A DNA stretch of 64,000 bases from an uncultured bacterium (GCA_964556365.1 CAZKVT010000001.1:7158-71157), one strand, 5' to 3'; shown: positions 14,341 to 63,870, numbered from the stretch's first letter. Notes: a model not told the origin generated them from the sequence alone. Numbers and translations: made by a program.

Positions 14341-14354
14341 TTTTAAATGATTTT

Positions 14355-17300: not shown

Positions 17301-20195
17301 TTGATCGGCGAATTTCACCTCAACCGGTTTCGTAGATGTCTCGATTTCGCGTTCTTCTATTAAATCGACGGTCTCCGTCGTTACATATTCTGGTTTGCCG
17401 ACCGTAAAATCTGTTTCTTTAAGGTAAGAATGCCAGGCAAGTTTCTTTAACTGAACAGAAACTTTATGACCGGCGGATAATTTTTCATCGACATCGAGAG
17501 CGATTATTTCCACTTCTATTGTGTTAACGTCTTTGACGTACCGGTTAGTTTTAAGCCCGAGTATAAACGAAGGCAACGCGATAACAGAACGGCTGCCGGA
17601 TACGGTCTGCTGGTCTGCTCCTGTAACTGTTGCTTCACATACATATTTCCTCGGGTTACCATCAAGCTCGGTTTGGGGATTAATTACAATAGTGGTTTCT
17701 CCGTTTTCGTCTGTCGTTTTTTCCTCTTCGAGAGGACCCGCCTGGGAAGTGTAACCTCTCGCTCCGAAACGGCTGTCTGAAGAAAGAAAATATCCTTCTA
17801 TTCCTTCCGGTTTAAATGTATAAGGGAAGGAAGTAACCCTCCACTTCACGCCCTGGTTTACGACTTTTCCCCCCGCGTAGTAAGTGGCTGTCAATTTAAT
17901 GGTAAAAGATTTGTCATTTGGTACCTTATCCGGACTGTGCAGCTTGACATCGAACCTGGGAACCTTGTAGGCTTCCATATCAAAATCGGTGCTGGCTACA
18001 CTACTTCTATACTTTTTTTCTATTAAATTAACCCGGTAAGTTCCGGTCGGAAGATTTTCCTCTTTAAATTCATGGTAAAAACTGCCCTCTTTTGTCAACT
18101 CAACGTCATATTCCCATTCTACTCCTTCCGGACTTCTAATGCTGAGGAAAAACTCCCTGTGTTTTACATAAGATATCTCCCCTTGAAAACGCCACCTTAC
18201 ATATCCTTTTATATAGACTTTTTCTTCCGGACGGTATATAGGACGTTCGGTAAAGACATGAGCTTTTATTGTAGGTTCTCCAGCGGAAGCTCTAGGGGTA
18301 TACGAAAGCCACTGGAGCCATCCCGAGCTATGGCGAGACCAGTGATTATTCGAAAACTCCGGAGGCGCGGCCTGACTGCGGGTATCTATTACAAGATAAT
18401 CCTCCCCTTTATTTACAAGAACTCTTTTTACCGCGAAATCTTTAAATTTTTGCTTGGTTTCCGGGTCATGCTCGATTTTCAAAAAACCATATCCGTTAGT
18501 TTGTCCGCTGTATATGGTCTCAAAATGTGATTTTTTTACACCCTCGATTTTTATGTTAGCGCCCGCGACCGGTTCACCCGTTTTATATGAAGTTACAGCG
18601 AATAAAACTTCATTTGTTGCCTCGATAGTACTCAAACACAAATCCGTAACCTGAATTTTTACGTATTGTCTTTCCTGTTTTCCGCCCAATTTTCTGAATC
18701 CGATTAGATAAGTACCGGGTTGATTCTCCCCGCTTATCTCAGCAAGCTTATCCTTTAAATTTATAGCGTTATGCCGCAAGACCCCTTCTTTTTCAAGATC
18801 TATTATCCTCGAATAATGCGGACTTCCAAGCATCTGGATGTGTGAGATAATTTGAGAGGTGCTTAAAGGGGAAAGTATATTATCTTCCGAAACCGGTTCT
18901 TCGCCGGGGCCGGGGGGAAGCGCGTCCTCATCTACCGATACCCATGTTTCGGGGAAAGGCCAGAAAGCTTTATTTAGAGGGTCTATCCGGTAAATTCTAA
19001 AATCTATATTCTTTATACCGGAAACTCTGATGGGGAAATGCTGCGGACCATATCTTTCAACTATACCAAAACTCTTGTCCCACCTTATAAAAATTTGTTC
19101 ACTGGGTCGGTAAAAATAAAAACTGGACGATTTTTCCATCACGAGGCTTCTGCCTTCCCTGTCCACAAAAGATATAGGTTCTATCGTAACCTTATAAAGT
19201 TTATCGGTTTCAACGGTAACATAAATTTGCAGCTGTTCGCCGCTTTGTCTGAAATCGAAAGCTTCCGGTGCCGGAGAAAAATTAACCATGCTTTTAACCA
19301 TAGATAAACTTAAATCCGCCGGAGGACTCGAAAAAGTAAAAACAAGCTCGCCTGATTGAGGCAATCTCAACGCTTGATCTTTATCATAGTTGCTTCCGGA
19401 AGGGTTGACAGTAAATTGATAGGCTCTGCTACCCACTCCTTGAAGCCTGAATTCTTCCTTTGTTTTAAAGTAATAAGTCTGGGAAGCTTCTTCTAAGGAA
19501 GGGTCATCTGATAACCTAAGTGTGGTCTCTACTTTAAGTCCGAGAGAGAAAGGATGTTCCATTTCAAAGTAGTATTTATAATTATCCGAATCCGAGGTAC
19601 GTTCGGCAAGTTTTATGTTAAAATCTTTATAAGTATATCTTTTTCTGCCCTCTTTACCTATACCCGGCAGGAGATAGGACTCAAAAGTAACAAGTTTGGA
19701 AAGAGCGGATGGGTCTACATAATATTCGAACTCCATTGTAATTTTCTCGACTTCCCCGAGGCCGGTTTCTCCGTTTTCGGGGATAATTTTCACCGGAGGA
19801 GAAAGCAATGTGGACAGTTCTTTTCTGTATCCTCCGATGCTAATTTTAAACTTTTCCATCGCCGGCCACGGAATTGTTGGTCGGAATTCCAGAGTCCTGG
19901 AATCAAGCCACCTGTATTCTCCGGGATGCGTTGGTTCTATTTTAATTACTTTCAGAGGTTCATCCATAGGGCCACTCCCCTCAGGATGCATCTCTTTCTT
20001 AAAAAAAACTGTCAAAGGATCGTATTCGCGCAGGAATTCTTCTGGCAGTATCGTAACATCTTTATCGCTTAAATTCTTAAACTGATTATAATCCGCGGGT
20101 TTATACTTATAAGGGTCGGTCGCGTAAGCGCTTAAGCAAACAAAATACAAAGCAAAAAATCTAAATGGGAAATAAATCTTTTTAGACATAAACAT
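14355..20195 (-). CDS. bacterial alpha-2-macroglobulin family protein with intact thioester (YfhM-like)
   Basis: The protein is 1946 aa. The thioester motif GCTEQ (CTEQ codons at 15819-15830) sits in HYPHGCTEQKVSYAYP. A signal peptide is present. The likely true start is the ATG at 20189 (MSKKIYF...), 6 nt after the SD AGGAGA, rather than 20195. Confidence 0.9.
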   Translation of the reverse strand: MFMSKKIYFPFRFFALYFVCLSAYATDPYKYKPADYNQFKNLSDKDVTILPEEFLREYDPLTVFFKKEMHPEGSGPMDEPLKVIKIEPTHPGEYRWLDSRTLEFRPTIPWPAMEKFKISIGGYRKELSTLLSPPVKIIPENGETGLGEVEKITMEFEYYVDPSALSKLVTFESYLLPGIGKEGRKRYTYKDFNIKLAERTSDSDNYKYYFEMEHPFSLGLKVETTLRLSDDPSLEEASQTYYFKTKEEFRLQGVGSRAYQFTVNPSGSNYDKDQALRLPQSGELVFTFSSPPADLSLSMVKSMVNFSPAPEAFDFRQSGEQLQIYVTVETDKLYKVTIEPISFVDREGRSLVMEKSSSFYFYRPSEQIFIRWDKSFGIVERYGPQHFPIRVSGIKNIDFRIYRIDPLNKAFWPFPETWVSVDEDALPPGPGEEPVSEDNILSPLSTSQIISHIQMLGSPHYSRIIDLEKEGVLRHNAINLKDKLAEISGENQPGTYLIGFRKLGGKQERQYVKIQVTDLCLSTIEATNEVLFAVTSYKTGEPVAGANIKIEGVKKSHFETIYSGQTNGYGFLKIEHDPETKQKFKDFAVKRVLVNKGEDYLVIDTRSQAAPPEFSNNHWSRHSSGWLQWLSYTPRASAGEPTIKAHVFTERPIYRPEEKVYIKGYVRWRFQGEISYVKHREFFLSIRSPEGVEWEYDVELTKEGSFYHEFKEENLPTGTYRVNLIEKKYRSSVASTDFDMEAYKVPRFDVKLHSPDKVPNDKSFTIKLTATYYAGGKVVNQGVKWRVTSFPYTFKPEGIEGYFLSSDSRFGARGYTSQAGPLEEEKTTDENGETTIVINPQTELDGNPRKYVCEATVTGADQQTVSGSRSVIALPSFILGLKTNRYVKDVNTIEVEIIALDVDEKLSAGHKVSVQLKKLAWHSYLKETDFTVGKPEYVTTETVDLIEEREIETSTKPVEVKFADQSAGVYILELNAKDKLGRLQTVKVDLFVAGDKPMAWQKPKQMIFETVPDKDSYEAGDVATILIKSPYQNARALSVIEMPDERPEYKWVDISGGKATLQVKILPEMVPLLPVSFLLIRSRIAPPKVLPEGQKVDLGKPEAVANTTWLKIEPTSNRVYVDLEHEKVVLPGNEMDMEISLKDNKGKPLSGEVTLWLVDDAIFALKKEKNIDPLEAFIDPVESYVSVRDSRNLAIGDLRLGESPAGDGYYEEEEEFEGLGKITVRKTFKTVPYYNPRILVNSSGKATVKIKMPDNLTNFAVRAVAVSGVSRFGSQKSKVAVRLPVIVQPALPRFIRIGDKFKAGGIARVVEGEGGKAIYSIETKGVDILKGKEKGTITLPSKEALPLYADMEASAPGYDEKGDLLIDSVSFKIALQRSYDKAGDAFQIKIPLLLDREPIVYDTFGIVKVDSAFYWKTLNDTPRKNTFHRDLIVSDKLAILKVLSALSYLMHYPHGCTEQKVSYAYPALAYDDIWGELGLETPDPHLKDYVNKTLEFLKKAQHPSGLFGYWPGSNGRVYLTAYITEFLLTVKKSGAGYHLDEEMLDRAINVLKRSLRSDYSQFLSGYRYYERCAAIHALGMAGEADVGYLRELASQTKQVDLLSQSRIYKAILTGDFRLGLASKNLEKELWKETIFKLKEGEEVFGGLQQRNMRIGAQVHASEIKNLSGLISAFSLSGKSPEKVEMMVDELVTLGSVDGWGNTNVNSNALLSLRDYMQEGKKRSLTAEFDLKDGSSSERIKFDGRKGALQAELKSKEAGNVSLKSKSRDEEFYVEYTQSYLPEKLGSAVSAEQHGFVVKRELIYVSKTDAPDKKNMLEKAETVHNLKIGDIIEEHIQVVNPKDQHFVAVSAPFAAGFEPLNPNLETSSADANPSGRTTDKVDYQQFLDDKVVYYFDYLPAGTYDFYFRLRATIEGDFTHPPARAEMMYDLSVNGNSPGAEIVIKQEK

Positions 20196-20201
20196 TCTCC
20201 T

Positions 20202-23200
20202 TTACCTTTTACCAATAATTCTGTTTATCACTTCTTCTGGAGGCAAATCTGGCGGAGCTTTCTGTCCCACTATTATCGGAGTACATGAAACCGCCTCCTC
20301 GGAAACGGGTACATGAAGTAAGAAATAATACAAACCTTTATCTAAATTCAAATATTGCTGTTCTCCTTTTCCTATAAGATTCCAATCCGAATCGTATAGT
20401 TTCGCCTTAACAACCTCTTTCTGAGTTTTAATCCCCAAACCAATTTTTCTTTTCGTGGGAATCGAAAAACCAAATATAGAGCTCTCACCCGGAGTGAGAT
20501 ATACTGTCGATCTTATATCTTCTTCCAGAGTTCTTACCGGTCTTAAACTGTAAACTAAATTAATATTACCCGGAGGCTCATAATCCATTAATCTCAAACC
20601 AAGTTTATATTCTCCCGGAGCTAAAGCGATCTGCCAATCGAATCCTTCAAAAGCGGAAAAATAATGAATAATTTTATTATCCTTTAACAATACTCCTATC
20701 ATTTCTCTCTTAGATTTTAAACTTATATGTTTTGTTTCCGAGAGATTTAATGAAAACCAATTTATTTTATCAGTGAGATAGAATTCCGTCGGATTGGTGA
20801 GGCCAAGAGTTCTAAAAACCCGAAGAGAATGTTCCCATTTCGATTCAAAAACCTTATCATTCTTTACGAGATTGATTTTAACTCCTCCGACTCCGTGAGC
20901 AACTTTCAAGAAACCTCCGAAGTTTGCGTCTTTTTCTCCTGCAGATACCCACAAAACTTCTCCATCATCTAGTTTTTCTCTAATCAACCCTTTTGAACTG
21001 AACAAAGTAATATTTTTTATATTTCCTTCATAGTATAAAGAAACTGAATCACAATCGGGCTTCAAGGAAGGAAGCTCGAGAGTAATTTCTCCGGGTTTAG
21101 AAAACCATTTTTCTATTCCGCTTTCAAGAGTAAGTTTCTTTTCTCTCTCAAACAGTTTTTTCTTTAACGGCTCCCGTATTTCCAGCAATTCCACAAAGAA
21201 CTTCTTTTCTCCTTCTAAAGCCAGCAAATATAAATTTCCCGAACCGGCTTTAAAATCAAAACCCGCGACTTCCGACTCGGTCGAATAAACTTCTCTACTC
21301 TCATCAGTTCCATCCCAAACACCGATTCCGCCAGAAGGAACTTTAACTCGGATAAGATATGGCCCCCTCCCGGGCAATTTATAACACCAACTTTCCGCCT
21401 TTGAAGAAATCCATTCCTGCTCTCCGATTTTAAGCACAGATTGCCCAGATATCGGAACATCTTTCCTTTCGACTTCGGCATAAATTTCCTCATCGAAATG
21501 TTCATCTGACCCATTCCAGAATACGACAGTACCCGGAACATCATCAAAATCTACAGTCAAACATTTACCCTTACTTAAGAATTGACCCCCCGTCACCGGA
21601 ATACCTGAAGGTTTAAAATATCCGGTTTTTTCTGTATACATTCCGGCAAAAGGCTGTCCGAAAGCCATATTAACTGAAATTACTGAAATATTATTTTCAT
21701 TAGAGGTAAGAGAAAACACTCTGGGAGTATTTTCAAGCATAGAAATTCTTATTTTCTCTTCCGTATTTAATCTGTAAGGAGATAAAGAAAATCTAACATT
21801 TCCGCAATTTTCAAATTTAATCTTCAAGTAGAGTTTTTCAAATAAAGAAGAAAAATATAGCCCTTTTTCCGAAGAGAAGAAAGGATCTTCCGAATCGGCA
21901 GTTTGTATCTCACTTAATAAATTACCGGAATTAACTCTATAATGACCGAGCCATCCAGTTCCCATATCTACATGAAAATATAAATTCTTTAATTCAGACT
22001 CTTCAGGAATTTCTCCCTTCCATCCATTTAAAAGATTAGAAAGCGAGATCTCTGTTGCTTTGACACTTTCATAAAGTAAGCTCACTCTCTCATCCAGATG
22101 GTCTTCCGACCAGACTTTTAATTTGTAATCAGCGTTAACGGAAATAGGCATCGCCAACTCGATTTTTTTTCCTCTTTTCTCAGCCAACACTTCGATATTT
22201 CCATTTGAATCGGTCCTCCCTATTAAACATCCTATGTTGCTCCTACCTTTCAGCGATACATTTATAATGTTCGCGTCTGCTAGTTTTTCAATTGGAAAAG
22301 TTAAAATCCTACCTTTTAAATCGAGCTCTTTTCGCGTCCCGGACTTAACAGAAGAAACGAGAGAGTCCGGAAGAGTTTTCATACTAACGAGCGTTTCAAA
22401 GGAACCTTCGCTTTCCGTCTGAACTTCCAGATAGTAATTCCCTTCTTTCAAATACTTCGAAATGTTAAAATTCCAATCGGAAAGACCATCATCGTTTTCC
22501 GCTATTAAAACACCGTCAGTATCGGACAATTTCGCGGATACATCGTCGGTACCCTTACTTGATAACTCGACAACTGATTCTTTGCCGACACGGACTTCGA
22601 AAGTACGGGGATTTGTAATCGTATAACTCTGACCTGAAATTAAAATATCTGTATTAACAGCTAAGCGGAAATCGATATGATTTTGCTCTTTAATCGATTT
22701 AACAGAAATTTCGTAATTTCCTATCTCGAGTTCAGACTCTTTACTTCCCGACCATACGAGAAGAATTTCTTCTTCATTTTTACGTTTTAAACTCGCTTCA
22801 AATTCATTACTAACGAACATATTCGCTTTTACAGGCGCGGGAACATTAATATAGAAAACCGCAGGTTTTCTTTTTCCATCGATAATTTCTTCGATCCAAT
22901 TAGAAGTAACGGTCTGGTTTAAAGCCAAAGTATGCGGTCCTTTCCCTTCAAAGCTCGGAACATCCTCGATTTTCTCGAGCAACGCTATTCTCCTGCTGGT
23001 CCTGTTCTCGGGAAGAGAAAACAACTTATAAGAACCTTTAGAAAAATTATATTGGATATCGGCATTTATTCCAGGTTTTAAGATCGGCCAACCTTCCTCA
23101 TCATCGAGCCTGGCTCTAAAATAACCTTCCTGCCCAAATGATTGGATTCTATAAGTTCCGGGATTGTCTATTCTAAAATGATATGAGATACCGGCACTCA

Positions 23201-25487
23201 CGGGAACCTCCGAGCGTTTCTCGCTGCCCGGCTCTAATTCTCCACCCGCGATTACCTGATTTGCTTTAAGCGATAATCCGAGGTGCCCGGCTGATTCTCC
23301 TGTAGCTTGAACACTTACCTGGTATTCTCCGGGCAGGAGATAAACCAATAACAAAGCATTTCGTCCCAAACCGTTTTCGGACGCTGACTGCAAATTCGTG
23401 ATAAAACGATTACGGAGAGTAATTTTCGTACTCAATCTACCTACGGTTTCAAGGCGGTAAATTCCGGGAGACTCAACGCTAACCTGATATACTTCGCTTT
23501 CTCCACGCACAAGATCGAAGAAATGAGGTTTTCCCGGATTAAGTTTCGGAAATTCAGGTAATTTATCCAGAAAACCTGTAGGCAGCGATTTAGGCGGGCT
23601 ATCGGGAAGGCGTTCTAAGATTTTGCCGCTTGCATATACGAAAATATTATCATCCGTTGTATTTTCTATTCTTAATTTATATTCTCCCGGTTTTACCATG
23701 GTCGGTTTTGTGTATGAATTATTGTCTAAATGGAAAGCATACTGTTTATCTGTTACATCGGAAACCGAAATACGCGATTCTTTTCTTACTTTAAAAGGAA
23801 CAGAAACTGTTCCTCCCGGAGAAAGATATACGGGTAAAGGATCCTCCAAAGATAAAGGTAAAAGTCTTAAAACAAGTCCCGCAACTTCCGGAGATTGATC
23901 GTTAATAAGCAAACTAAGACTTTTGGTTGGATCACTATCCAGCGGAATAGAAGGAAATTGTATACGGGGAAAACCCGAATATAAGCGCTCTTCCTCTTCA
24001 GTGAATATTTTTTTAGCTAATCCTTTAACCATAGAAACAAGTGAAATATGATAAATATTTAAAGTAAGAATGCCTTTGTTTTCAGGATATAGGTGTAACT
24101 TGTGTAAACCCCGGGTCAAGTTCACAGAACCTTTCCCCGTTACACTTTTCGGAGAACGGTAATTAGGAGGTTTAACAACAAAATATTTCTCTATCTTCCA
24201 TTTCGCTTCCACACCCATAGGATTTATCACATACCTACCCGAAGTTTCAACCCATAAATATAAACTCATAGAGCCTAAAAGATTAAATTTCCTGTAAAAC
24301 TGGCGGATGTTCGTCAACGTATCTACCTGCATATCGTAAAGCTTCAAACCACTATTTCGCGTCAGCACACCCGAAGTTCCGAGTTGATCCCCGGGCACCC
24401 CTGTATGTAATGAAGAAAGCCAGTATCGTCCTGTCGTTCTAACACTAAGAGAAGAGTTTAACTTTTCGAGTGATTGCAGCTTAAATCTTTGCCCTTCTTC
24501 ACCGAATACTTTGACAAGAAAATAAGGATTCGTATTACTGTGAGGGTTAAGCATACATCTTGGATCATTTAACTTCACATGGATGGAATCTCTTTCCGTG
24601 ACAGACTGATATGGACTATTATAACTAAAAGGACTTACCTCGATATTTAATAGAACTTTTTTTTCTGTTTCCAACAACATCCTGGAAACCTCAGAAGAAA
24701 CAAGATACTGATTATAACCGAGAGAAGAAACTTCATCGAGCACAATTCCTGTAGTAGCAATCTTTGGTATTCCCCAGACAACATAAAGCGGATTTTCAGA
24801 ACTTTTCTTAGACCAATTAGCCTGCTTTCCTCCGTAAGCGGTAAGCAAATACAATCCGGGATTAACCCTGACAACCATTTTCAAACACACAAGAGGAGTT
24901 TCCTGCGTAGGATAGCTCTTTGAGGTTAATATTTCCGTATCCACTCTCCAGTTTCCGTCCTTCCAGAGTTCAAGACCGGCTATATTCCTTCCGGCAGCTT
25001 CTATCTGTAAGGTTGTAATTGTATCGATTTCGATCCAGTAGGAAACCTGCTGTAGATCAAGTAGCTCCGTTTTGTGAATTTTATACGGAATTAAATATTT
25101 GGGATTTTTTTCATTTATTTCATCATACGAGAAAACTTTAACAGTCGCTTTACTCCTACCCTTTGTATGCGATAGAGTCTGTATTTTGTACTTTCCTTTT
25201 TCCAGAAAAAGGTCCAATCTCCCGTTTCTTTCGCCGGCTAATCCATCGATAGCACCCGGACCATTTTTTTTATCCCAAATCTGGATCGAGGTCCCTTCCT
25301 CGTTAAAAGATTGTATGGAATATCTACCCCACTTATTAACTTCAAAAACAATAGAGTACAAACCTTTTCCGTCAAAAGTCTTTTGTAATATTTCTTTTCC
25401 GGAGATTTTTAGGGTGCACACAAAAAACAAAAATAAAACGAACTGAGCAAAAATTTTATATCTTCTCACACTTTCCCTCCCTACCAA
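20202..25487 (-). CDS. giant secreted protein built of repeated PPC/pre-peptidase-C-terminal-like beta-sandwich modules; function unknown
   Basis: The protein is about 1760 aa. Recurrent module ends have the form G.Y.(L/I/V) (GKYKIQTL, GLYLLTAY, GEYKLRIE, GIYRLETV, GEYQVSVQ, GTYRIQSF, GNYYLEVQ, GEYKLGLR, GLYYFLLH). One module has the clear PPC signature SAKLSDTDGVLIAENDDGLSDWNFNISKYLKEGNYYLEVQ. The probable start is the GTG at 25469, after GGGAGGG, giving the signal peptide MRRYKIFAQFVLFLFFV. The stop lies 6 nt before the A2M start region. Confidence 0.7.
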   Translation of the reverse strand: MVGRESVRRYKIFAQFVLFLFFVCTLKISGKEILQKTFDGKGLYSIVFEVNKWGRYSIQSFNEEGTSIQIWDKKNGPGAIDGLAGERNGRLDLFLEKGKYKIQTLSHTKGRSKATVKVFSYDEINEKNPKYLIPYKIHKTELLDLQQVSYWIEIDTITTLQIEAAGRNIAGLELWKDGNWRVDTEILTSKSYPTQETPLVCLKMVVRVNPGLYLLTAYGGKQANWSKKSSENPLYVVWGIPKIATTGIVLDEVSSLGYNQYLVSSEVSRMLLETEKKVLLNIEVSPFSYNSPYQSVTERDSIHVKLNDPRCMLNPHSNTNPYFLVKVFGEEGQRFKLQSLEKLNSSLSVRTTGRYWLSSLHTGVPGDQLGTSGVLTRNSGLKLYDMQVDTLTNIRQFYRKFNLLGSMSLYLWVETSGRYVINPMGVEAKWKIEKYFVVKPPNYRSPKSVTGKGSVNLTRGLHKLHLYPENKGILTLNIYHISLVSMVKGLAKKIFTEEEERLYSGFPRIQFPSIPLDSDPTKSLSLLINDQSPEVAGLVLRLLPLSLEDPLPVYLSPGGTVSVPFKVRKESRISVSDVTDKQYAFHLDNNSYTKPTMVKPGEYKLRIENTTDDNIFVYASGKILERLPDSPPKSLPTGFLDKLPEFPKLNPGKPHFFDLVRGESEVYQVSVESPGIYRLETVGRLSTKITLRNRFITNLQSASENGLGRNALLLVYLLPGEYQVSVQATGESAGHLGLSLKANQVIAGGELEPGSEKRSEVPVSAGISYHFRIDNPGTYRIQSFGQEGYFRARLDDEEGWPILKPGINADIQYNFSKGSYKLFSLPENRTSRRIALLEKIEDVPSFEGKGPHTLALNQTVTSNWIEEIIDGKRKPAVFYINVPAPVKANMFVSNEFEASLKRKNEEEILLVWSGSKESELEIGNYEISVKSIKEQNHIDFRLAVNTDILISGQSYTITNPRTFEVRVGKESVVELSSKGTDDVSAKLSDTDGVLIAENDDGLSDWNFNISKYLKEGNYYLEVQTESEGSFETLVSMKTLPDSLVSSVKSGTRKELDLKGRILTFPIEKLADANIINVSLKGRSNIGCLIGRTDSNGNIEVLAEKRGKKIELAMPISVNADYKLKVWSEDHLDERVSLLYESVKATEISLSNLLNGWKGEIPEESELKNLYFHVDMGTGWLGHYRVNSGNLLSEIQTADSEDPFFSSEKGLYFSSLFEKLYLKIKFENCGNVRFSLSPYRLNTEEKIRISMLENTPRVFSLTSNENNISVISVNMAFGQPFAGMYTEKTGYFKPSGIPVTGGQFLSKGKCLTVDFDDVPGTVVFWNGSDEHFDEEIYAEVERKDVPISGQSVLKIGEQEWISSKAESWCYKLPGRGPYLIRVKVPSGGIGVWDGTDESREVYSTESEVAGFDFKAGSGNLYLLALEGEKKFFVELLEIREPLKKKLFEREKKLTLESGIEKWFSKPGEITLELPSLKPDCDSVSLYYEGNIKNITLFSSKGLIREKLDDGEVLWVSAGEKDANFGGFLKVAHGVGGVKINLVKNDKVFESKWEHSLRVFRTLGLTNPTEFYLTDKINWFSLNLSETKHISLKSKREMIGVLLKDNKIIHYFSAFEGFDWQIALAPGEYKLGLRLMDYEPPGNINLVYSLRPVRTLEEDIRSTVYLTPGESSIFGFSIPTKRKIGLGIKTQKEVVKAKLYDSDWNLIGKGEQQYLNLDKGLYYFLLHVPVSEEAVSCTPIIVGQKAPPDLPPEEVINRIIGKR

Positions 25488-56485: not shown

Positions 56486-57133
56486 ATGTATCACCTCAAT
56501 TCTTTAATAGATCATACCAATTTAAAAATCAGCACTTCTGAAGAAGATATTAAAAATTTATGCAGGGAGGCTCTTAAATATAACTTTAGAGGAGTTTGTG
56601 TCGATTCCTTATGGATACCACTTGTAAACGAACTCCTGAAAAACAAAGGGGTTAAAATAATTTCTGTTTGTGACTTTCCTCTCGGGGCTTCATCGACTGA
56701 AATCAGGAAAAAAGAGACAGAACTTATCATCAAAGAAGGCGCCGAAGAGATTGACCTTGTAATGCAAATACCCCTTTTAAAAAGTAAAAAATACAAAAAA
56801 ATCGAAAATGATATAAAAGAAATCGTGAATATCATACATCCGAACGTAATACTCAAAGTGATTATAGAAGCTCCCGTACTATCTGAATATGAAATAATAA
56901 CCGCGACAAAAATTGCGGAAAGCGCGGGAGCCAACTATATTAAATCCGGCACGGGCACGAATGGAGCAGTTACTACAAATCAGATAAAAACTATTAAAAA
57001 AACGACAAAACTCCCCATAAAAGCCGCGGGCGGGATAAAAAACATGGATATGGCTATAAAGCTTTTAAATACAGGAGCTTCGGTTCTCGGAAGTTCAAAT
57101 TCGATTGAAATAATTAAAGGGGAAAATAGATGA
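56486..57133 (+). CDS. deoC: deoxyribose-phosphate aldolase
   Basis: LIDHTNLK, GVCV, EIDLVM, LKVIIE and YIKSGTG (Schiff-base Lys region) are present, and the length is 215 aa. Confidence 0.85.
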   Translation: MYHLNSLIDHTNLKISTSEEDIKNLCREALKYNFRGVCVDSLWIPLVNELLKNKGVKIISVCDFPLGASSTEIRKKETELIIKEGAEEIDLVMQIPLLKSKKYKKIENDIKEIVNIIHPNVILKVIIEAPVLSEYEIITATKIAESAGANYIKSGTGTNGAVTTNQIKTIKKTTKLPIKAAGGIKNMDMAIKLLNTGASVLGSSNSIEIIKGENR

Positions 57134-58140
57134 AGAAAAAACTGGGGCTAATCCTTAGTTTCTTTATATCGATGATTTTTTTGCTTCTGGCTTTAAAAAA
57201 AGTTAACGCGAAAGAAATAACAGAATCATTACTAAACGCGAATTTATTATATTTCTTTCTTGCCATTTTCATTACACTAATCGCTTTCCTTCTCCGCGCG
57301 ATTAGATGGAGAATTCTTTTAAATCCTTTGAAAAAACTTCCATTATCCATGGTTTTTAACGCGACAATGATTGGATTCATGTGCAATTACACGCTACCCG
57401 CCAGGGTCGGCGAAGTAATAAGAGCATATCTTATAGGCGCGAGAGGAAATATTAGTAAGAGCACGGCTTTTGCCACAATAATAGTAGAAAGAGTAATGGA
57501 TGTTTTTATTTTAACCCTTTTTACCGCTATCCTTTTAATCTTTTTTCCGGTACCGGGCTACTTCAAAAAAATAGGTGCCGTAATTGTTCTTTTAAATACT
57601 CTAATCTTTATTCTCCTTGTAGTAATGGATAAAAAAACCGCGGTTTTTATTAGAATAATCGAAAAACCATTATCAATATTCGGCGAAAAAATAAAAGAAA
57701 AGATTAAAACATTTCTTTTCGCTTTTATAAAAGGACTGAAGATTCTGGAAAACCGTTCAAATTTTCTTCTGGCGGCAGTTTTTTCTCTTGGTATATGGAG
57801 TATCACGGGTTTACTTTTTTACGTTTTATTCTTTTCATTCCCAATCCGCCTGCCCCTACACGCGGCTTTCCTGGATATGATAGTTCTCACCTTCGGCATT
57901 ATGATTCCCTCGACTTCCGGTTTTATAGGAACTTTTCAATTTTTCGCGAAAGAAGGGTTGATGATTTTCCATGTCGACCCGAATATAGCATTGAGTTATT
58001 CCATACTGCTTTACGCTTCTCAATTTTTACTTGTAGTAGTAGTGGGACTGGTTTCCCTATGGCTCTGGGGACTGGATTTCAAGGATTTAAAGACTAAAGC
58101 TTCTTCATATAATTCATTAGAGAATAAACAAAGAGACTAA
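57130..58140 (+). CDS. UPF0104 / lysylphosphatidylglycerol-synthase-TM-region-like (flippase-like) membrane protein
   Basis: There are about 8 TM helices. FLLRAIRWRILLNPL and ARVGEVIRAYL are typical of PF03706. It overlaps deoC via ATGA. Confidence 0.65.
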   Translation: MKKKLGLILSFFISMIFLLLALKKVNAKEITESLLNANLLYFFLAIFITLIAFLLRAIRWRILLNPLKKLPLSMVFNATMIGFMCNYTLPARVGEVIRAYLIGARGNISKSTAFATIIVERVMDVFILTLFTAILLIFFPVPGYFKKIGAVIVLLNTLIFILLVVMDKKTAVFIRIIEKPLSIFGEKIKEKIKTFLFAFIKGLKILENRSNFLLAAVFSLGIWSITGLLFYVLFFSFPIRLPLHAAFLDMIVLTFGIMIPSTSGFIGTFQFFAKEGLMIFHVDPNIALSYSILLYASQFLLVVVVGLVSLWLWGLDFKDLKTKASSYNSLENKQRD

Positions 58141-58166
58141 AAACTTAAACGGAAAGCAACTTTCCG
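58135..58166 (-). terminator. putative intrinsic terminator of the REC-GGDEF/Hpt/GspE operon
   Basis: The minus-strand hairpin is CGGAAAG-TTG-CTTTCCG (58150-58166), a 7-bp stem. It is followed by TTTAAGTTTTT, which overlaps the stop codon. Confidence 0.45.
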
Positions 58167-60745
58167 ACCCGTAGTAATAACAATTCCTTTTTTACAGGTT
58201 TTTTCAAGTAATCTGCCGCGCCTTTTTTCAGACCCTCGATTTCATTCTCGGAATCCGAAAGAGAGGTCACGAATATTACAGGTGTTTTAATCCCTTTTTG
58301 CTTTATAATATTCATTAAAGAAAAACCATCGAGATTGGGCATATTTACATCGGAAATTACAAGGTCAAAATCTTTCTTTCCCAAATCGAGCAAAGCGGCG
58401 GCTCCGTCTTCCGCGAGAGTTACCATATAACCCGCGTTGGTTAAGTATCGAGATATCAAATTCCGTGAATCGACATCATCTTCCACCACAAGAATCATTT
58501 TCCCCTTTTCCTCTATTTCCTGAGTTTCGACCTCAACGGCTTTTTCCTGCTCGATAGTTTCCTTCTCTTCGCCGAGAACAACTTTCGTTGTTTTTTTGGC
58601 AGAAGATTCTTCAATTAAAACCTTATTATAAACATCTTCAGGGGCAAATATAAGACTTCTTATTTTTTCTATAGCATGGTCAGGTAAAAGATAACAACCT
58701 TTTTCTTTAAAAATGTGACGGATTTCCGAAATTGGAGTTCCTTTTCTTATTTCTTCGATTATATCTTCATCGAATTTCAAGACCTCATATACACCTTCTC
58801 TGCCGTAATATCCTGTGTTATTGCAATTCGGACATCCCTTCACCTCGAGAACTCTTTCCGGAATATCATCCGTAAAGGGTTCTAAGAGTTTTCTCTGCTC
58901 GTCAGATATATGCACAATTTTACTGCAGGACTGGCAGGGTTTTTTTATTAATTTTTGAGCAACAATACAGAGGAGACTTTCGGACATTTGTAATCTTGCA
59001 ACGTCCAATCTCTCGAGACGGAAAATAGCGGAAGTCGCGTTTGAAGTATGGAGAGTGGAAATAGTTAAATGTCCTGTAGAAGCAAAATCTACAGCCGTTT
59101 TAGCCGAATAAGGGTCTCTTATCTCTCCCATGTATAAAATATCGGGGTCCTGCCTGACAGACGATTTTAAAAGGTCCTCAAAAGCTATACCAGCTTTTTC
59201 GTTCACCTGCTGCTGATTCGCCGACGGGATGCGGTATTCGACCGGGTCTTCCACACTCATAAGACTTCGTGTTTCCGTATCTATTTGCGAAAGTAAACTG
59301 TAAACTGTCGTAGTTTTTCCCGAACCTGTTCCACCCACCACAAGAACCATTCCGTGATGCTGATTTCCGCTGTTCTCAAGAACGGCTGACTGTTTTTCCG
59401 TCATACCCAACTCAAGAAGAGTCTTTGGTTTCGCGTAAGGTTTTAATATTCTTATAACAACACTCTCACCGTTGGGTGTAGAAGTTGTGGCAATACGAAA
59501 ACTAAAGACACCACCGGCTATTTCCCTGGCGAAACTTCCGTCTTGAGGTCTTCTGCGCTCAGCAATATCCAGACCAGCCAATAATTTAAGACGGGATATG
59601 ACCATCTGGCTGGTTCTGCCTTTAATATTAACATGGTCGACCATATCTCCGTCGACTCTGAATCTAATAACGGATTCATTTTTTTTAGGCTCTATATGTA
59701 TATCACTCGCCCGGCTTTTAATTGCCTCCTGTAGGATACTATTGGTTATAGTTATTACAGGCCCACCTTCTCCATCTATAACTTTGTGTTTTTCTTCTTC
59801 TTTTTTTTGGAACACCTGAGTCACGTACCTTTCATTTACCCCCTCAGTTTCAGCTTCCTGCCTCTTATACTCTTGCTTCTTACTTAATTCTTCCTCCTCC
59901 ACAAATTCAGGTTCTTTAAAAAGCTTTTCTATATTCTCAGGTTCGCTTACCAGAAATCTCGAATTGGGAGATATGTCCCAGAAACTATCCAGAGAATCCA
60001 GCAAATCCCAATCAAAGGGATTGCTTATTACCAATGCTTCCTCACCCGAAGGCTCGATTCTGGGGACAATAAGATTTTTTTTGCAAAATGCTCCGGGAAA
60101 CGTACCGAGATGCACGTTCTGGATTTCTATCGTCGGAGTGTAAGGCAAACCAAGAAAACCGCTAATATATTCGGCCATTTTTTTATTGCTAAGATTTATC
60201 TCGGAAGCGAAAGAATATATATCACGGGGAGTTATCTTAAATAATCTTTTTTTGTTTTCTTTGTTTAAATTTAAACTGTATGATAAAAACTTAATAAATC
60301 TATTAAAATCTAATGGTTTGATGTTTTTTCTGATACCCGAAGGGCGTTCGGAAAGTTTTTTCCATCGTTTTCCGGTTTTTACATGTTTATCAATTATAGA
60401 AAGGAGTTTCTCTTTTTCAATAGGTTTCACCAGATAATCCACTCCTCCCACAGAAAATGCTTTTGCCTTATCCTTATCACTTTCTAAGGCAGTCAAGAAA
60501 ATAACAGGGATAAACTCCGTTTCTTTATCTTTCTGCAGGTTTGAACAAACGGTATACCCATCCATGGAAGGCATATTTATATCCAGTAGAACGACATCGG
60601 GCTTTTCTTCTTTTACTTTTTCTATTCCCTCTGTCGGACTTATTGCTGTTATAACTTCATATCCTGCGTCAGAAAGGATTCTTTCCACTAATTTGAGCAT
60701 ATCTTGATTGTCATCGATGTAAACAACCTGAGCCTTTTTATTCAT
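58145..60745 (-). CDS. GspE/PilB-family secretion ATPase flanked by receiver (REC) domains at both termini
   Basis: The N-terminal REC has IDDNQD, LLDINMPSMDG, FLTA and YLVKP. A T2SSE_N-like region follows. The ATPase core has Walker A VVGGTGSGKTTT, ILYMGEIRD and the His box GHLTISTLHT, plus the tetracysteine CQSC...CPNC. The C-terminal REC has VEDD, ISDVNMPNLDG, FVTS and YLKKP. Confidence 0.85.
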   Translation of the reverse strand: MNKKAQVVYIDDNQDMLKLVERILSDAGYEVITAISPTEGIEKVKEEKPDVVLLDINMPSMDGYTVCSNLQKDKETEFIPVIFLTALESDKDKAKAFSVGGVDYLVKPIEKEKLLSIIDKHVKTGKRWKKLSERPSGIRKNIKPLDFNRFIKFLSYSLNLNKENKKRLFKITPRDIYSFASEINLSNKKMAEYISGFLGLPYTPTIEIQNVHLGTFPGAFCKKNLIVPRIEPSGEEALVISNPFDWDLLDSLDSFWDISPNSRFLVSEPENIEKLFKEPEFVEEEELSKKQEYKRQEAETEGVNERYVTQVFQKKEEEKHKVIDGEGGPVITITNSILQEAIKSRASDIHIEPKKNESVIRFRVDGDMVDHVNIKGRTSQMVISRLKLLAGLDIAERRRPQDGSFAREIAGGVFSFRIATTSTPNGESVVIRILKPYAKPKTLLELGMTEKQSAVLENSGNQHHGMVLVVGGTGSGKTTTVYSLLSQIDTETRSLMSVEDPVEYRIPSANQQQVNEKAGIAFEDLLKSSVRQDPDILYMGEIRDPYSAKTAVDFASTGHLTISTLHTSNATSAIFRLERLDVARLQMSESLLCIVAQKLIKKPCQSCSKIVHISDEQRKLLEPFTDDIPERVLEVKGCPNCNNTGYYGREGVYEVLKFDEDIIEEIRKGTPISEIRHIFKEKGCYLLPDHAIEKIRSLIFAPEDVYNKVLIEESSAKKTTKVVLGEEKETIEQEKAVEVETQEIEEKGKMILVVEDDVDSRNLISRYLTNAGYMVTLAEDGAAALLDLGKKDFDLVISDVNMPNLDGFSLMNIIKQKGIKTPVIFVTSLSDSENEIEGLKKGAADYLKKPVKKELLLLRVGKLLSV

Positions 60746-61055
60746 TTACGATTTCTACTCTCCCCAGATAATTTTTAAGTTCAGATACATTGTTTTTTAT
60801 TTCTTCCGCGTTTTTTTCTTTCGCGGATATTTCGATCGTTTTTCCTAACTCGGTTATACCATCGAACCCGTAAATAGAACCGGACCCTTTCATACTATGT
60901 CCTAGTCTCTCTATCGTTTCAAAATCTCCCTTTTCCAGAGATTCATTAATTTTATTGATATCTTTTTCCTTGTTCTCGAGAAAATTCGGAATAAGCTGAA
61001 TCGCGTACTCGGGAACTTTAATTTTAATTTTTTCGTCGCTTTTTTCACCTTGCAT
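60738..61055 (-). CDS. histidine phosphotransfer (Hpt) domain protein
   Basis: The protein is 105 aa and carries LGHSMKGSGSIYGF (HxxKG phospho-His motif). It overlaps the downstream ATPase gene by 8 nt. Confidence 0.8.
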   Translation of the reverse strand: MQGEKSDEKIKIKVPEYAIQLIPNFLENKEKDINKINESLEKGDFETIERLGHSMKGSGSIYGFDGITELGKTIEISAKEKNAEEIKNNVSELKNYLGRVEIVNE

Positions 61056-61080
61056 TATTTAAACCTCCATTTTTACTGTA

Positions 61081-62058
61081 TTAGTTCGCGACTTTAACAC
61101 AATTGCGTCCAGCCTGCTTAGCCGCGTATAGCGCCTTATCCACCTTACTTATAAATGAATTTGGTTTTGTTTTTCTATCGGGCTTAACTGTAGCTACTCC
61201 TATGCTTATTGTAACATATTTCTCCACGGACGATTTTTCATGTTTTATTTTTAATTTTTTTGTTTCACTTAAAAACCGATTAGCGACCTCGAGAACTCCT
61301 TTTTTGTCAGTATTAGGAAGAACTCCAATAAATTCTTCCCCCCCGTATCTACAAAGAAAATCTTTCGGTCTTTTTAAAGTATCGTTTAAGATACCGGCGA
61401 CTTTTTTCAAACAATCATCACCCTTTAAGTGTCCGTATGTATCATTATACGCTTTAAAATAATCGATATCGAACATTATTAGCGAAATAAATTCTTTTTC
61501 CCTTACGGCATTCTTCCATTCGCCGATAAAAAACTCCTCAAAATAACGCCGGTTTGGAACGCCAGTTAGACCATCCCTGTATGACATACGAGTCAATTTC
61601 TTATTTGCTTCGTCGAGCAGCTCAGCCATCTCCGTTATCTCTCTTTCTCTTTCTTTCCTGCTGTCTGTTTCCCTCTTTAGTTTTAAAGCAGAATGAACTC
61701 TGGCTAAAAGCTCGGTTTTATTTGTCGGTTTTGTTATATAATCTATGGCTCCCGCCTCAAAAGCCAACTGCAGATGACTTTCTTCCCTGTGGGCTGTGAT
61801 CATTATAATAGGAATATCTTTTAGTTCTTTATCCTTTTTGATTTTACCGCAGGCTTCTATACCGTTTATATCCGGCATATTTATATCCATCAGGATAAGA
61901 TCTATATCTTTTTTCTTGTTACTATTTTTTAAGCCAAGAATTTCGAAAGCTCGAACCGCCGATTCGGCAAGATGTATTTTACTATATCCTTCCTTGCTTA
62001 AAATCGATTTAAGTACTAATAACTGGTCTTCTGAATCATCAACAATAAGAATATTCAT
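61081..62058 (-). CDS. response regulator diguanylate cyclase (REC-GGDEF) with I-site
   Basis: The REC domain has VDDSED, LMDINMPDINGIE and YITKP. The GGDEF domain has RDGLTGVPNRR and RYGGEEF, with RPKD (RxxD) 5 residues upstream as an I-site. Confidence 0.9.
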   Translation of the reverse strand: MNILIVDDSEDQLLVLKSILSKEGYSKIHLAESAVRAFEILGLKNSNKKKDIDLILMDINMPDINGIEACGKIKKDKELKDIPIIMITAHREESHLQLAFEAGAIDYITKPTNKTELLARVHSALKLKRETDSRKEREREITEMAELLDEANKKLTRMSYRDGLTGVPNRRYFEEFFIGEWKNAVREKEFISLIMFDIDYFKAYNDTYGHLKGDDCLKKVAGILNDTLKRPKDFLCRYGGEEFIGVLPNTDKKGVLEVANRFLSETKKLKIKHEKSSVEKYVTISIGVATVKPDRKTKPNSFISKVDKALYAAKQAGRNCVKVAN

Positions 62059-62295: not shown

Positions 62296-63870
62296 ACGAA
62301 AAAGGCATTAATTTTAACGGTTTTCAATTTATTGTTCGCTTTTTTTCTCTCAGCGGACAATTTAATCCTCAACCCGGGATTCGAGTCCTGGACTGAAAAT
62401 ACCCCTGATAATTGGACACACAAATCAGGAATTACTGTTTTTAAAGAAGATGGATTATCCCACGAGGGAAATTTTAGCCTTAAAGATTCTCTTACCACAC
62501 AATCGCAAACCGACGCCGATCTAATAAGCGCCTCTATCGAAATTTCTCCTGGAGTAGCCTGTACTCTAAGAGTATGGGTCTATGACAATGAGCCTGCCGG
62601 CAGGCTCAGGCTGATAGCCTGTTGGAATACAGGAGATTCAGACTGGGGCTCCTATTCGGCCGACAGCGCAAATTGGCAGCAGCTTGAGCTGGTAACAAAC
62701 ACTCCTTTTAATGCTGATTCCGGAAGCCTCGCTCTAAGAGCATACGATATTGATTCTGTTTGGGATGGGGACGCTGTTTTCTACATCGACGACGCTGAAT
62801 TTATAACCATTACGGAACCGCCTCCCTTTGTAAAAAGAATCTGGCATACCCCCACTCATCCTACACAAACCGAAACAGAAAACATCTACGCTGAAATATT
62901 AGACAACGGCAATATAACAGTTGATTCCCTTTACTACGGGATAAATAATTTAGATTCTCATTTTGCTATTACTCACGCCGCAATCAGCGGAGATACCTTT
63001 TCTTATAATATTCCGCAGCAGACAGAAGATGATACTGTTTTTTATTACCTATGGGTAAAAGACAATGACGATTCGGTTACAATTTCGGATACCAACACCT
63101 ATTACGTGGGTAACAAAGGAATAATCATTAATGAATTGTGTTATGATACTCCGGGTTCGGATACAGCATGTTTTGTAGAATTATACGGACCCCCCGGAGC
63201 TTCCCTGGAGGGAATAGAGGTTGTGGGAGTAAACGGTTCAGACGGTGAAGATTATCAAAATATCGACCTTACAGGCTATTTGATACCTTCTGATGGTTTT
63301 TTTGTTATAGCGCAGGATAGCTCTGTTATAAATTCTGATACTATCACGACAAAGGTAAATTTACAAAACGGCCCGGATAATATCGAACTACGATTTAAAG
63401 GAATAACCATCGACGCGCTGGGATACGGAAACGGCAATTTTATATTTACAGGCGAAGGATTACCCGCTCCTGATATAGCGTATACAAATAGTTTATCGCG
63501 ATATCCGGATGGCGAGGATACGGACAACAACATAAGCGATTTTATAGAAACCACGCTTAGAACTCCGGGAGAAGGCAACTTTTCCTATATTAAAGAGAAC
63601 AACGCCGGACAGCCTTTCGACATATCCTTTCCATCTATTCTGTTAGGAAATAAAGGAGAGTTTATAATAAAAGCGGGGGGGAAAGGGCGTGTAGATTTTT
63701 CTATATTTAACATTTTGGGACAACAAATTTTTAATTCTAAAAAAGATTTTTCGAACCCCGGCACATACAAAATCGAATGGAATATCAAAGACGTCTGCCC
63801 GGGTGTATATTTTTGCAATTTACAATACGAAGAAATACTTTTAACCGAAAAGATTCTGGTAATAAGATAA
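62296..63870 (+). CDS. secreted protein: CBM-like N-terminal domain, lamin-tail (LTD) domain, T9SS type-A C-terminal sorting domain
   Basis: NLILNPGFESWTENTPDNWT is a CBM_4_9-like start. The LTD region is IIINELCYDTPGSDTACFVELYGPPGASLEGIEVVG...DGFFVIAQ. The C-terminal FSIFNILGQQIF...PGVYFCNLQYEE..LTEKILVIR is a T9SS CTD. The tracked TTG start (62332) leaves no usable signal peptide. The frame is open from 62275, and KKALILTVFNLLFAFFLSA follows the SD AAAGGGGG, implying a start at ACG 62296 (or a base error). Confidence 0.7.
   Translation, partial: TKKALILTVFNLLFAFFLSADNLILNPGFESWTENTPDNWTHKSGITVFKEDGLSHEGNFSLKDSLTTQSQTDADLISASIEISPGVACTLRVWVYDNEPAGRLRLIACWNTGDSDWGSYSADSANWQQLELVTNTPFNADSGSLALRAYDIDSVWDGDAVFYIDDAEFITITEPPPFVKRIWHTPTHPTQTETENIYAEILDNGNITVDSLYYGINNLDSHFAITHAAISGDTFSYNIPQQTEDDTVFYYLWVKDNDDSVTISDTNTYYVGNKGIIINELCYDTPGSDTACFVELYGPPGASLEGIEVVGVNGSDGEDYQNIDLTGYLIPSDGFFVIAQDSSVINSDTITTKVNLQNGPDNIELRFKGITIDALGYGNGNFIFTGEGLPAPDIAYTNSLSRYPDGEDTDNNISDFIETTLRTPGEGNFSYIKENNAGQPFDISFPSILLGNKGEFIIKAGGKGRVDFSIFNILGQQIFNSKKDFSNPGTYKIEWNIKDVCPGVYFCNLQYEEILLTEKILVIR

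Follow-up and report, generated by a model that had tools for sequence, protein, structure and literature searches.

A PilB/GspE-class ATPase with a receiver domain at each end, encoded with a stand-alone Hpt protein and a REC-GGDEF cyclase in an uncultured bacterium

The motors of type IV pili and type II secretion systems are controlled by cyclic di-GMP (c-di-GMP) through MshEN domains, by adaptors (PilZ-FimX), and in trans by response regulators. In Vibrio cholerae MshE and Thermus thermophilus PilF, which are extension motors of type IV filaments, regulation enters through the N-terminal domain, and the protein described here is likened to these. Supplementary Table 4 of Wang et al. 2016 (PMC5013675) lists a form with a receiver in front of this arrangement, REC-MshEN-T2SSE (Geobacter metallireducens Gmet_3473), and no form with two receivers. 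Here we analyse a 64,000-nucleotide (nt) stretch from an uncultured bacterium (GCA_964556365.1 CAZKVT010000001.1:7158-71157; "the window" below), in which a three-gene operon at 58145-62058 encodes a diguanylate cyclase, a histidine phosphotransfer (Hpt) protein and an ATPase of the PilB/GspE class with a receiver at both ends. The operon is probably the output end of a His-Asp-His-Asp phosphorelay, with the Hpt protein feeding the receivers of both the cyclase and the motor ATPase, and phosphorylation would have replaced c-di-GMP as the input to the motor; we give this reading a probability of about 60%. The loss of the c-di-GMP pocket, together with the presence of receivers at both ends, suggests the replacement.

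The operon and its three products

The first-pass annotation had described one minus-strand operon of three open reading frames (ORFs), of which two overlap by 8 nt and two are separated by 25 nt. All of these coordinates were reproduced, and the GGEEF and RxxD motifs of the REC-GGDEF protein, the HSMKG motif of the Hpt protein and the ATPase motifs that it named were all located in the sequence. The features are as follows, with the basis of each assignment in brackets.

61081..62058, minus strand: REC-GGDEF diguanylate cyclase, 325 aa (Pfam, NCBIfam, motif positions)
60738..61055, minus strand: stand-alone Hpt phosphotransfer protein, 105 aa (Pfam, HSMKG motif)
60738..60745, minus strand: 8-nt overlap of the Hpt stop and the ATPase start, ATGAATAA (sequence)
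58145..60745, minus strand: 866-aa protein, REC - predicted degenerate MshEN - N2E/CTE PilB/GspE-class ATPase - REC (profiles, alignments, tree)
60392..60733, minus strand: REC1, residues 5-118, with D11, D12, D55 (acceptor), T85 and K107-P108 (Pfam, alignment)
59906..60328, minus strand: MshEN-fold domain, residues ~140-280, four-helix bundle plus N1E/MshEN_C subdomain (AlphaFold2 (AF2), Foldseek, hhalign)
58631..59764, minus strand: N2E and CTE ATPase core, residues 328-705 (Pfam, alignment, motifs)
58154..58501, minus strand: REC2, residues 749-864, with D756, D757, D799 (acceptor), T827 and K849-P850 (Pfam, alignment)
58150..58166, minus strand: weak terminator-like hairpin with a T-run across the ATPase stop codon (promoter/terminator scan)

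The gap between the cyclase and Hpt genes runs from 61056 to 61080, and a GGAGG Shine-Dalgarno sequence lies 9 nt upstream of the Hpt gene. The overlap of the Hpt and ATPase genes indicates translational coupling between them. A promoter and terminator scan of the region gave no more sites than expected from shuffled sequence, and the hairpin at the end of the operon was the one terminator-like, and weak, signal.

In Pfam, the 325-aa protein matches REC (1.1e-29) and GGDEF (PF00990; 3e-52, 177.1 bits). Its GGEEF motif is at residue 239, and an RPKD inhibitory site at 230, 5 residues upstream, has the spacing found in PleD; the REC domain carries the quintet D7/D8/D58/T88/K110. The protein has both the GG(D/E)EF active site and the RxxD inhibitory site of an active diguanylate cyclase and is predicted to be one, with NCBIfam scores for DgcR (207 bits) and PleD (251 bits) that are both below the equivalog cut-offs. 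The 105-aa protein matches Hpt (PF01627; 7.7e-10, 39.3 bits versus a cut-off of 24.6), with His53 in the HSMKG motif.

Two REC (PF00072) stretches are found in the 866-aa protein (2.2e-58, 195.6 bits), as well as T2SSE (PF00437) at residues 328-695 (1.7e-103, 346.6 bits versus a gathering cut-off of 24.9). The ATPase core contains a Walker A motif (GGTGSGKTT, 471), an Asp box (SVEDPVEY, 497), a Walker B motif (DPDILYMGEIRD, 533) with the catalytic Glu541, a His box (TGHLTISTLHT, 557) and a tetra-cysteine zinc site formed by Cys604, Cys607, Cys638 and Cys641 (CQSC at 604 and CPNC at 638). The Arg-rich ERRRPQDGS segment of N2E aligns with AEKRVPQDGR of EpsE, and the core is about 40% identical to the EpsE/GspE and PilB structures. 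The tetracysteine in CTE and the Arg-rich loop in N2E are those of the extension-type (PilB/GspE) ATPases. Scores against the GspE equivalog TIGR02533 (373.7 bits, cut-off 630.25) and the PilB equivalog TIGR02538 (364.7 bits, cut-off 675.65) fall below their thresholds, the gene is located outside the pil cluster, and the context of a GspE gene (GspF/GspL/GspC-D, pseudopilins) is missing, with no PilC or GspF gene in the window or beside family members. By profile and context, the protein does not appear to be a genuine GspE or a genuine PilB.

Conservation extends over all of its catalytic sites. When 30 full-length homologues at 49-81% identity are aligned, the REC1 and REC2 residues given above are invariant or nearly so, and the Walker A and B motifs, the His box and the tetra-Cys site are likewise unchanged. 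In a broad alignment of 45 members of the double-REC clade (32-77% identity), both REC quintets and the ATPase motifs (Walker A and B, His box, tetra-Cys) are kept in 41-45 members: the residues of the REC1 quintet in 41-44, the acceptor Asp in 43 for REC1 and 44 for REC2, the Walker A Lys in 44, and the catalytic Glu541 and the four Cys in all 45. Both receivers look catalytically competent from these alignments, in agreement with the earlier view of them as apparently functional; clade-wide retention of the quintets means that neither is degenerate on alignment. The idea that they are pseudo-receivers was rejected because every catalytic residue is conserved. The ATPase protein is under purifying selection: the ratio of non-synonymous to synonymous substitution rates (dN/dS) among the genus orthologues is ~0.06-0.09 overall and at most 0.13 for every folded domain, values that are approximate because dS is saturated. 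With the same reservation, the rough estimates per domain are 0.08 for REC1, 0.09-0.13 for the MshEN-like domain, 0.04-0.05 for the ATPase core and 0.02-0.05 for REC2. A full-length AF2 model is confident for REC1 (predicted local distance difference test (pLDDT) score 84-92), residues 144-280, N2E and REC2 (pLDDT 75-90), and a Foldseek search with it recovered GspE/PilB and REC structures only.

Between REC1 and the core, the first-pass annotation had noted a T2SSE_N region. There is a domain at this place, but it is better described as a full MshEN fold that has lost its c-di-GMP motif. The Pfam match to MshEN/T2SSE_N is weak (residues 208-276, 4e-4, below the cut-off), and hhalign against canonical MshEN N-termini gave 96% probability for residues 185-275 only, that is, the last helix and the MshEN_C/N1E subdomain. 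AF2 modelled residues 132-285 alone with confidence (pLDDT 86.5, predicted template modelling score (pTM) 0.81). With this model, the top 20 Foldseek matches in the PDB were all MshEN/GSPII domains (template modelling (TM) score up to 0.66 over ~135-145 columns), including XpsE-N, PilF GSPII-A/B, Xanthomonas citri PilB-N and MshE 5HTL. The c-di-GMP motif of MshEN domains is a tandem 24-residue sequence, RLGxx(L/V/I)(L/V/I)xxG(L/V/I/F)(L/V/I)xxxxLxxxLxxQ (Wang et al. 2016, PMC5013675). It was found neither in the window protein nor in any of the 30 homologues; even the loose pattern RLGxxLVxxG occurs in none of 86 representatives sharing the MshEN-like domain, and the terminal Gln of the motif is an invariant Phe. 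The middle region is thus modelled as a complete MshEN fold without the c-di-GMP motif, a degenerate MshEN, which makes direct gating of the ATPase by c-di-GMP unlikely.

Distribution, phylogeny and gene neighbourhoods

A word-indexed search returned more than 120 full-length relatives (~840-885 aa) at about 50% identity or better, whose labels include WOR-3, Cloacimonas, Desulfobacterales, Syntrophales and Thermodesulfobacteriota and whose names are generic ('PilB', 'TadA', 'T2SS/T4P/T4SS ATPase'). Double-REC fusions in a single ORF are also found in Gemmatimonadota, Coriobacteriia, Elusimicrobiota and one metagenome-assembled genome (MAG) of Eubacteriales. Metagenomes and MAGs from at least six phyla commonly contain the architecture, which in this respect is not the unusual design that it was first taken for; the other part of that assessment, that no characterised double-REC form was known, agrees with the literature. 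Full-text searches found no characterised REC-fused PilB/GspE, whether with one receiver or with two, and a 2024 review of PilB cofactors does not mention a REC-fused PilB. What is new is the double-REC form with its conserved operon context, undescribed in the literature searched; the form with an N-terminal REC had already been catalogued.

With the MshEN-like region alone as the query, an exhaustive HMMER search gave 177 clusters (50% identity), of which 90 reach E<=1e-10. Among the best 150 of the 177, which were classified, 46 clusters are REC-MshEN-T2SSE, 29 are REC-MshEN-T2SSE-REC, 6 are REC-MshEN-REC and many are fragments. Rare fusions are REC-Hpt-REC-MshEN-T2SSE-REC, Hpt-REC-MshEN, MshEN-T2SSE-GGDEF (P0243) and REC-MshEN-T2SSE-HK, the last with a kinase core. 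The REC-MshEN-like-REC proteins (L017:14795-16582, P0141, P0144, P0149, P0185, P0200 and P0263) are 425-595 aa long and have no ATPase domain; in L017, a Coriobacteriia MAG, the gene is located just downstream of a full operon of the ATPase and two accessory genes, d1 and d2, described below.

In a FastTree phylogeny of 142 ATPase cores, 57 canonical ATPases included, rooted at the midpoint, all 44 double-REC proteins fall in one clade of 60 rows (support 100, branch length 0.5), which contains none of the 57 canonical ATPases. Twenty-one proteins with only an N-terminal REC sit among canonical PilB-like sequences. Apparent full-length matches in the candidate phyla radiation (CPR; Moranii-, Nomura- and Saccharibacteria), Chloroflexota and Planctomycetota were rejected as tblastn stitching of separate pilB, REC, pilT and pilC genes, and a scan of loci with generic GspE motifs gave mostly ordinary PilB/GspE among the matches listed. 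The CPR pilus operons (L044, L052, L054, L081, L086, L087) have a stand-alone REC gene of ~130 aa in the order pilB-REC-pilT-pilC-pilins, and in Chloroflexota and Planctomycetota between one and four separate REC genes immediately precede pilB; L026, L032, L045 and L057 belong with these loci that have a stand-alone REC near pilB.

The Hpt gene adjoins the ATPase gene in every lineage sampled, mostly with an 8-nt overlap, which is identical in L090, L092, L094, L097, L098, L010, L014 and L017. Of the three genes that might have been co-conserved, Hpt is adjacent and translationally coupled in all lineages examined, but REC-GGDEF is adjacent in only some. A hybrid kinase of the HisKA-HATPase-REC-REC type is adjacent in Cloacimonadota (L092), Desulfobacterota (L094, L095, L097), Gemmatimonadota (L011, L013, L018, L019), Coriobacteriia (L012, L017) and Elusimicrobiota (L014). 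In genome G017, which is 99% complete and belongs to the phylum of the window, kinase, Hpt, ATPase, d1 and d2 form a tightly overlapping five-gene operon. The d1 protein (~170-180 aa) matches no Pfam family and has an N-terminal zinc ribbon, one transmembrane helix and an outer domain with invariant Cys116, Cys139, Cys159 and His165. The d2 protein is of the prepilin type, with variable C-terminal parts and Pro-rich linkers, and in most phyla a pilin-like gene of this kind follows the ATPase within the translationally coupled operon. The earlier statement that no pilin genes are near the ATPase is true of the window; the relatives do carry pilin-like genes beside it, and these have been lost in the genus. 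The C-terminal modules of d2 are lineage-specific (L020:2035-2901, L094:13082-13927, L095:13085-13678): one protein has a 3-keto-disaccharide-hydrolase/DUF1080-like domain, others a long Pro-rich spacer followed by a globular domain. Their sequences hint at the display of cargo or adhesins on a filament. The ancestral operon, as reconstructed from these loci and kept in most lineages, appears to be hybrid kinase - Hpt - ATPase - d1 - d2 (one or more), never with PilC. A module of this composition suggests that a type IV filament or pseudopilus of its own is assembled in response to a signal.

A proposed circuit and its alternatives

The source assembly comprises 1.85 Mb in 47 contigs and is 78.6% complete. 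As had been reported, the window has no PilC/GspF, pilin, secretin or histidine kinase gene (none of the genome's 23 HATPase_c matches lies inside C1:7158-71157), and the counterparts are on other contigs: a single PilC on C5, the contig that also carries the type IVa pilus (pil) cluster and its two canonical PilB paralogues; pilin-like genes, seven in all, on C19 and C15; and two secretins on C15 and C3. The hybrid kinase, too, is not in the window but is not missing from the genome. The operon-linked kinases of the relatives have their best matches at C26:10370-13300 and C2:~88.4-90.5 kb. The C26 kinase has the architecture PASx3-HisKA-HATPase-REC-REC and is followed by a 102-aa Hpt protein (Hpt') that is 63% identical to the operon Hpt; its closest paralogue, on C2, is a HisKA-HATPase-REC-REC protein of 706 aa without a sensor domain. 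The C2 paralogue is embedded in a partner-switching cluster (C2:~83.0-91.3 kb; L139:983-9289) of PAS-STAS, STAS, RsbW-like kinase, HATPase_c_2-PP2C, PAS-STAS, REC-PAS and STAS genes and a trailing REC-HisKA gene. Both canonical PilB paralogues on C5 carry tandem MshEN motifs. The assembled genome has five GGDEF and four HD-GYP-type genes, and EAL and PilZ, at this completeness provisionally, are not found in it; with no PilZ found, the MshEN domains of the C5 PilB proteins are the only recognisable c-di-GMP receptors in the genome. At C19:3135-7544, c-di-GMP synthesis is linked a second time to type IV pilins in the genome: the gene for a GAF-GAF-GGDEF cyclase (527 aa) stands directly upstream of a run of five genes for small pilin-like proteins and an ORF of 1123 aa.

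The circuit we propose would start at the PAS-sensor hybrid kinase, encoded here at C26:10370-13300, which would supply the phosphoryl group and pass it to the stand-alone Hpt protein. From Hpt, it would go to the REC domain of the cyclase, which would turn on c-di-GMP synthesis in the manner of PleD or DgcR, and to one or both of the receivers flanking the hexameric PilB/GspE-class ATPase. With one receiver before the degenerate MshEN domain and the second behind the catalytic core, phosphorylation in place of c-di-GMP would license this motor. One relay would thus have two outputs: direct phospho-control of a third extension-type ATPase, and c-di-GMP, which would be read by the two MshEN-bearing PilB proteins of C5. 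That these genes form a phosphorelay output module, as first suggested, is supported by the linkage to Hpt and to the hybrid kinase, to which the rare fusions with Hpt, GGDEF or a kinase core add Rosetta-stone evidence; by this linkage, one or both receivers of the ATPase may be phosphorylated by a cognate donor. The direction of phosphotransfer, the choice of target receiver, the consequence for ATP hydrolysis by the motor, the substrate that becomes the filament and any use of the genome's PilC by the motor are put forward here as predictions of the circuit.

Within the genus, the pairs kinase-Hpt' and REC-GGDEF-Hpt are found in all 15 genomes. In the source genome and seven others, the ATPase has its full length or is truncated solely by the end of a contig; full-length genus orthologues, at 78-82% identity, are found in at least seven genomes. 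A first survey, in which 7 of ~40 candidates per genome were scored, had found the ATPase in 7 of 13 genus genomes, and five apparent absences were then inspected directly. The conserved site is TruA-DGC-Hpt-[ATPase]-LarA, where DGC is the diguanylate cyclase. In the genus, the module appears to have been split and trimmed, with d1 and d2 gone, the kinase and a duplicated Hpt gene elsewhere, and REC-GGDEF recruited upstream.

Several of the findings weigh against the phosphorelay reading. The AF2 model of the whole protein has low quality in the catalytic domain and in the packing of the domains (pLDDT 63, pTM 0.38), so that a contact between receivers and hexamer is not to be deduced from it, and for every family member it is from sequence that we infer phosphotransfer, the effect of phosphorylation and the substrate. 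In the loci examined, no PilC or GspF gene adjoins any family member. REC-GGDEF is adjacent in three of the seven lineages sampled, the window's own counted (the window's genus, L094 and L096), and the loci from Gemmatimonadota, Coriobacteriia and Elusimicrobiota all lack it; the genetic tie of the ATPase to c-di-GMP synthesis in the first-pass annotation is lineage-specific. None of the 15 genus genomes, seven of which are at least 90% complete, has d1, and d2 is absent from all 15; for the source assembly itself, the absences of d1/d2, PilZ and EAL are provisional given its incompleteness. At least four sister species (G011, G047, G067 and G107) have a clean gap in place of the ATPase between Hpt and the convergent LarA gene, and all that is left of it in G072 is a stub of 177 aa consisting of REC1 and 27 more residues. 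Clean loss in sister species indicates that the ATPase is dispensable, and it may do something else here than it did ancestrally.

These losses bear on what else the protein might be. An ATPase that is optional beside a REC-GGDEF-Hpt pair present in all 15 genomes could be a signalling hub or phosphate sink, its receivers competing with the cyclase REC for phosphorylated Hpt or scaffolding the relay, so tuning c-di-GMP, with ATP hydrolysis as a read-out or timer instead of a filament motor. The lack of any platform, pilin or d1/d2 gene near the operon, and of d1/d2 in the genus, fits this explanation, as do the REC-MshEN-REC proteins without an ATPase domain (6 clusters; L017) and a resemblance to Myxococcus xanthus PilB, for which a signalling role in exopolysaccharide production has been published (PMC5544727). 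Yet the catalytic ATPase residues, Arg fingers and zinc site are as conserved as the receivers, the core has one of the lowest approximate dN/dS values (0.04-0.05), and the pilin-like genes in the same translationally coupled operon in most phyla argue for a motor role, so we consider a hub rather unlikely. The same polymorphism at the TruA-LarA site, the stub and the lack of d1, even in the seven most complete genomes, could also mean that the genus ATPase, having lost its partners (d1, d2 and the adjacent kinase), is a remnant on its way out and that the real function is transfer from Hpt to REC-GGDEF. Against such decay stand the intact 866-aa ORF with all catalytic residues, the full-length orthologues in at least seven genomes, the low, if approximate, dN/dS in all folded domains and the retained 8-nt coupling to Hpt, and we strongly doubt it.

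The cyclase product might instead bind directly to the ATPase, at the MshEN-like domain or elsewhere, and phosphorylation would then be an additional input; the genetic tie to c-di-GMP synthesis stressed in the first-pass annotation invites this reading. The fold is complete, binding does not always need perfect conservation of the motif (Wang et al. 2016, PMC5013675), and one family member (P0243) is fused to GGDEF. The loose RLGxxLVxxG element is nevertheless absent from all 86 REC-MshEN-like proteins, an invariant Phe replaces the terminal Gln, the best structural match, XpsE-N, is a documented non-binder, and the cyclase is missing from the operons of most lineages; direct gating by c-di-GMP is very improbable. 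A proposal that goes further than the phosphorelay reading is that the double-REC clade defines a self-contained, phosphorelay-triggered mini type IV filament module, made up of a sensor hybrid kinase, Hpt, the double-REC ATPase, d1 and d2 and without a PilC/GspF platform of its own, in which the cytoplasmic zinc ribbon of d1 would dock on the degenerate MshEN as GspL does on GspE-N1; it would have been dismantled in this genus and the motor re-wired to a c-di-GMP branch. We regard this as an unlikely scenario; if true, the type IV filament superfamily would include a minimal architecture that had not been recognised before, with d2 as a pilin-like protein bearing variable C-terminal cargo domains.

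Other genes of the window are recorded here for completeness. The flanks of the operon do not resemble the TruA ... LarA synteny of the sister species. On its upstream side, a divergent gene at 62332-63870 (plus strand) encodes a 512-aa protein with a marginal type IX secretion system C-terminal sorting domain (26.3 bits versus a cut-off of 27). Downstream, a convergent gene at 57130-58140 (plus strand) for an LPG_synthase_TM-family membrane protein ends 4 nt from the ATPase stop. Further away, 7909-11883 (plus strand) encodes a 1324-aa protein made up nearly entirely of HEAT/PBS-lyase-type repeats (17 HEAT_2 stretches). At 11902-25487 (minus strand), a PBP1-type transglycosylase/transpeptidase (812 aa) adjoins an alpha-2-macroglobulin (1946 aa) and a 1761-aa ORF without a Pfam match, in a segment with a G+C fraction of 0.40-0.44 versus 0.30-0.36 in its surroundings.

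Significance and comparison with known systems

In a motor that has a receiver at either end and is wired to Hpt and a hybrid kinase, phosphorylation would switch the ATPase directly. The clade, found widely in phyla of anaerobes that are for the most part uncultured (WOR-3-like, Cloacimonadota, Desulfobacterota, Gemmatimonadota, Elusimicrobiota and Coriobacteriia), would be a natural experiment in which an MshEN scaffold swaps a second-messenger input for phosphorylation. It also reveals an unannotated accessory family, d1, and pilin-like proteins that may bear cargo. In the source genome, the suggested circuit is one in which a single relay would drive one motor by phosphorylation and two others through c-di-GMP.

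The Gmet_3473-type REC-MshEN-T2SSE proteins share the N-terminal receiver, the MshEN fold and the PilB/GspE core with the window protein and are likewise experimentally uncharacterised. The window protein differs in its second, C-terminal receiver, in belonging to a separate ATPase clade, in an MshEN domain without the c-di-GMP motif, and in its coupling to Hpt and a hybrid kinase. MshE (PDB 5HTL) and the GSPII domains of PilF have in common with it the order of the domains, namely MshEN fold, N2E and a CTE with the tetra-Cys site, and the MshEN-like domain superimposes on 5HTL with a TM score of 0.61-0.66. Their input is c-di-GMP, bound through tandem RLGxxLVxxG...Q motifs, whereas in the window protein these motifs are missing and receivers are present on both ends. 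The best structural matches, Xanthomonas XpsE (a GspE; 2D27/2D28) and the N-domain of X. citri PilB (7LKO), combine the MshEN fold with a degenerate c-di-GMP site and are regulated through partners (XpsL and PilZ-FimX, respectively). Unlike the window protein, they have no receivers and are encoded in canonical type II secretion or type IV pilus clusters with GspF or PilC.

Control of a pilus extension ATPase, in activity or localisation, by receivers that depend on phosphorylation is known from PilG/PilH of the Chp system, from PixG/PixH (PATAN-REC) of Synechocystis and from the Xanthomonas tandem-REC protein DrdR (PMC13507683), all acting on PilB in trans. PilG/PilH, PixG/PixH and DrdR are separate proteins, with CheA-type kinases, while the receivers of the window protein are fused to the motor and would be fed by a hybrid kinase and Hpt. 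As a working analogy only, in REC-AAA+ proteins of the NtrC/DctD type phosphorylation of a receiver controls the assembly or activity of a hexameric P-loop ATPase; these are AAA+ sigma-54 activators, an unrelated ATPase class with another output and a single N-terminal receiver. The 325-aa protein, finally, shares REC, GGEEF and an RxxD site at PleD spacing with PleD, WspR and Leptospira DgcR, has one REC domain where PleD has two, and would be fed by Hpt, not directly by a kinase.

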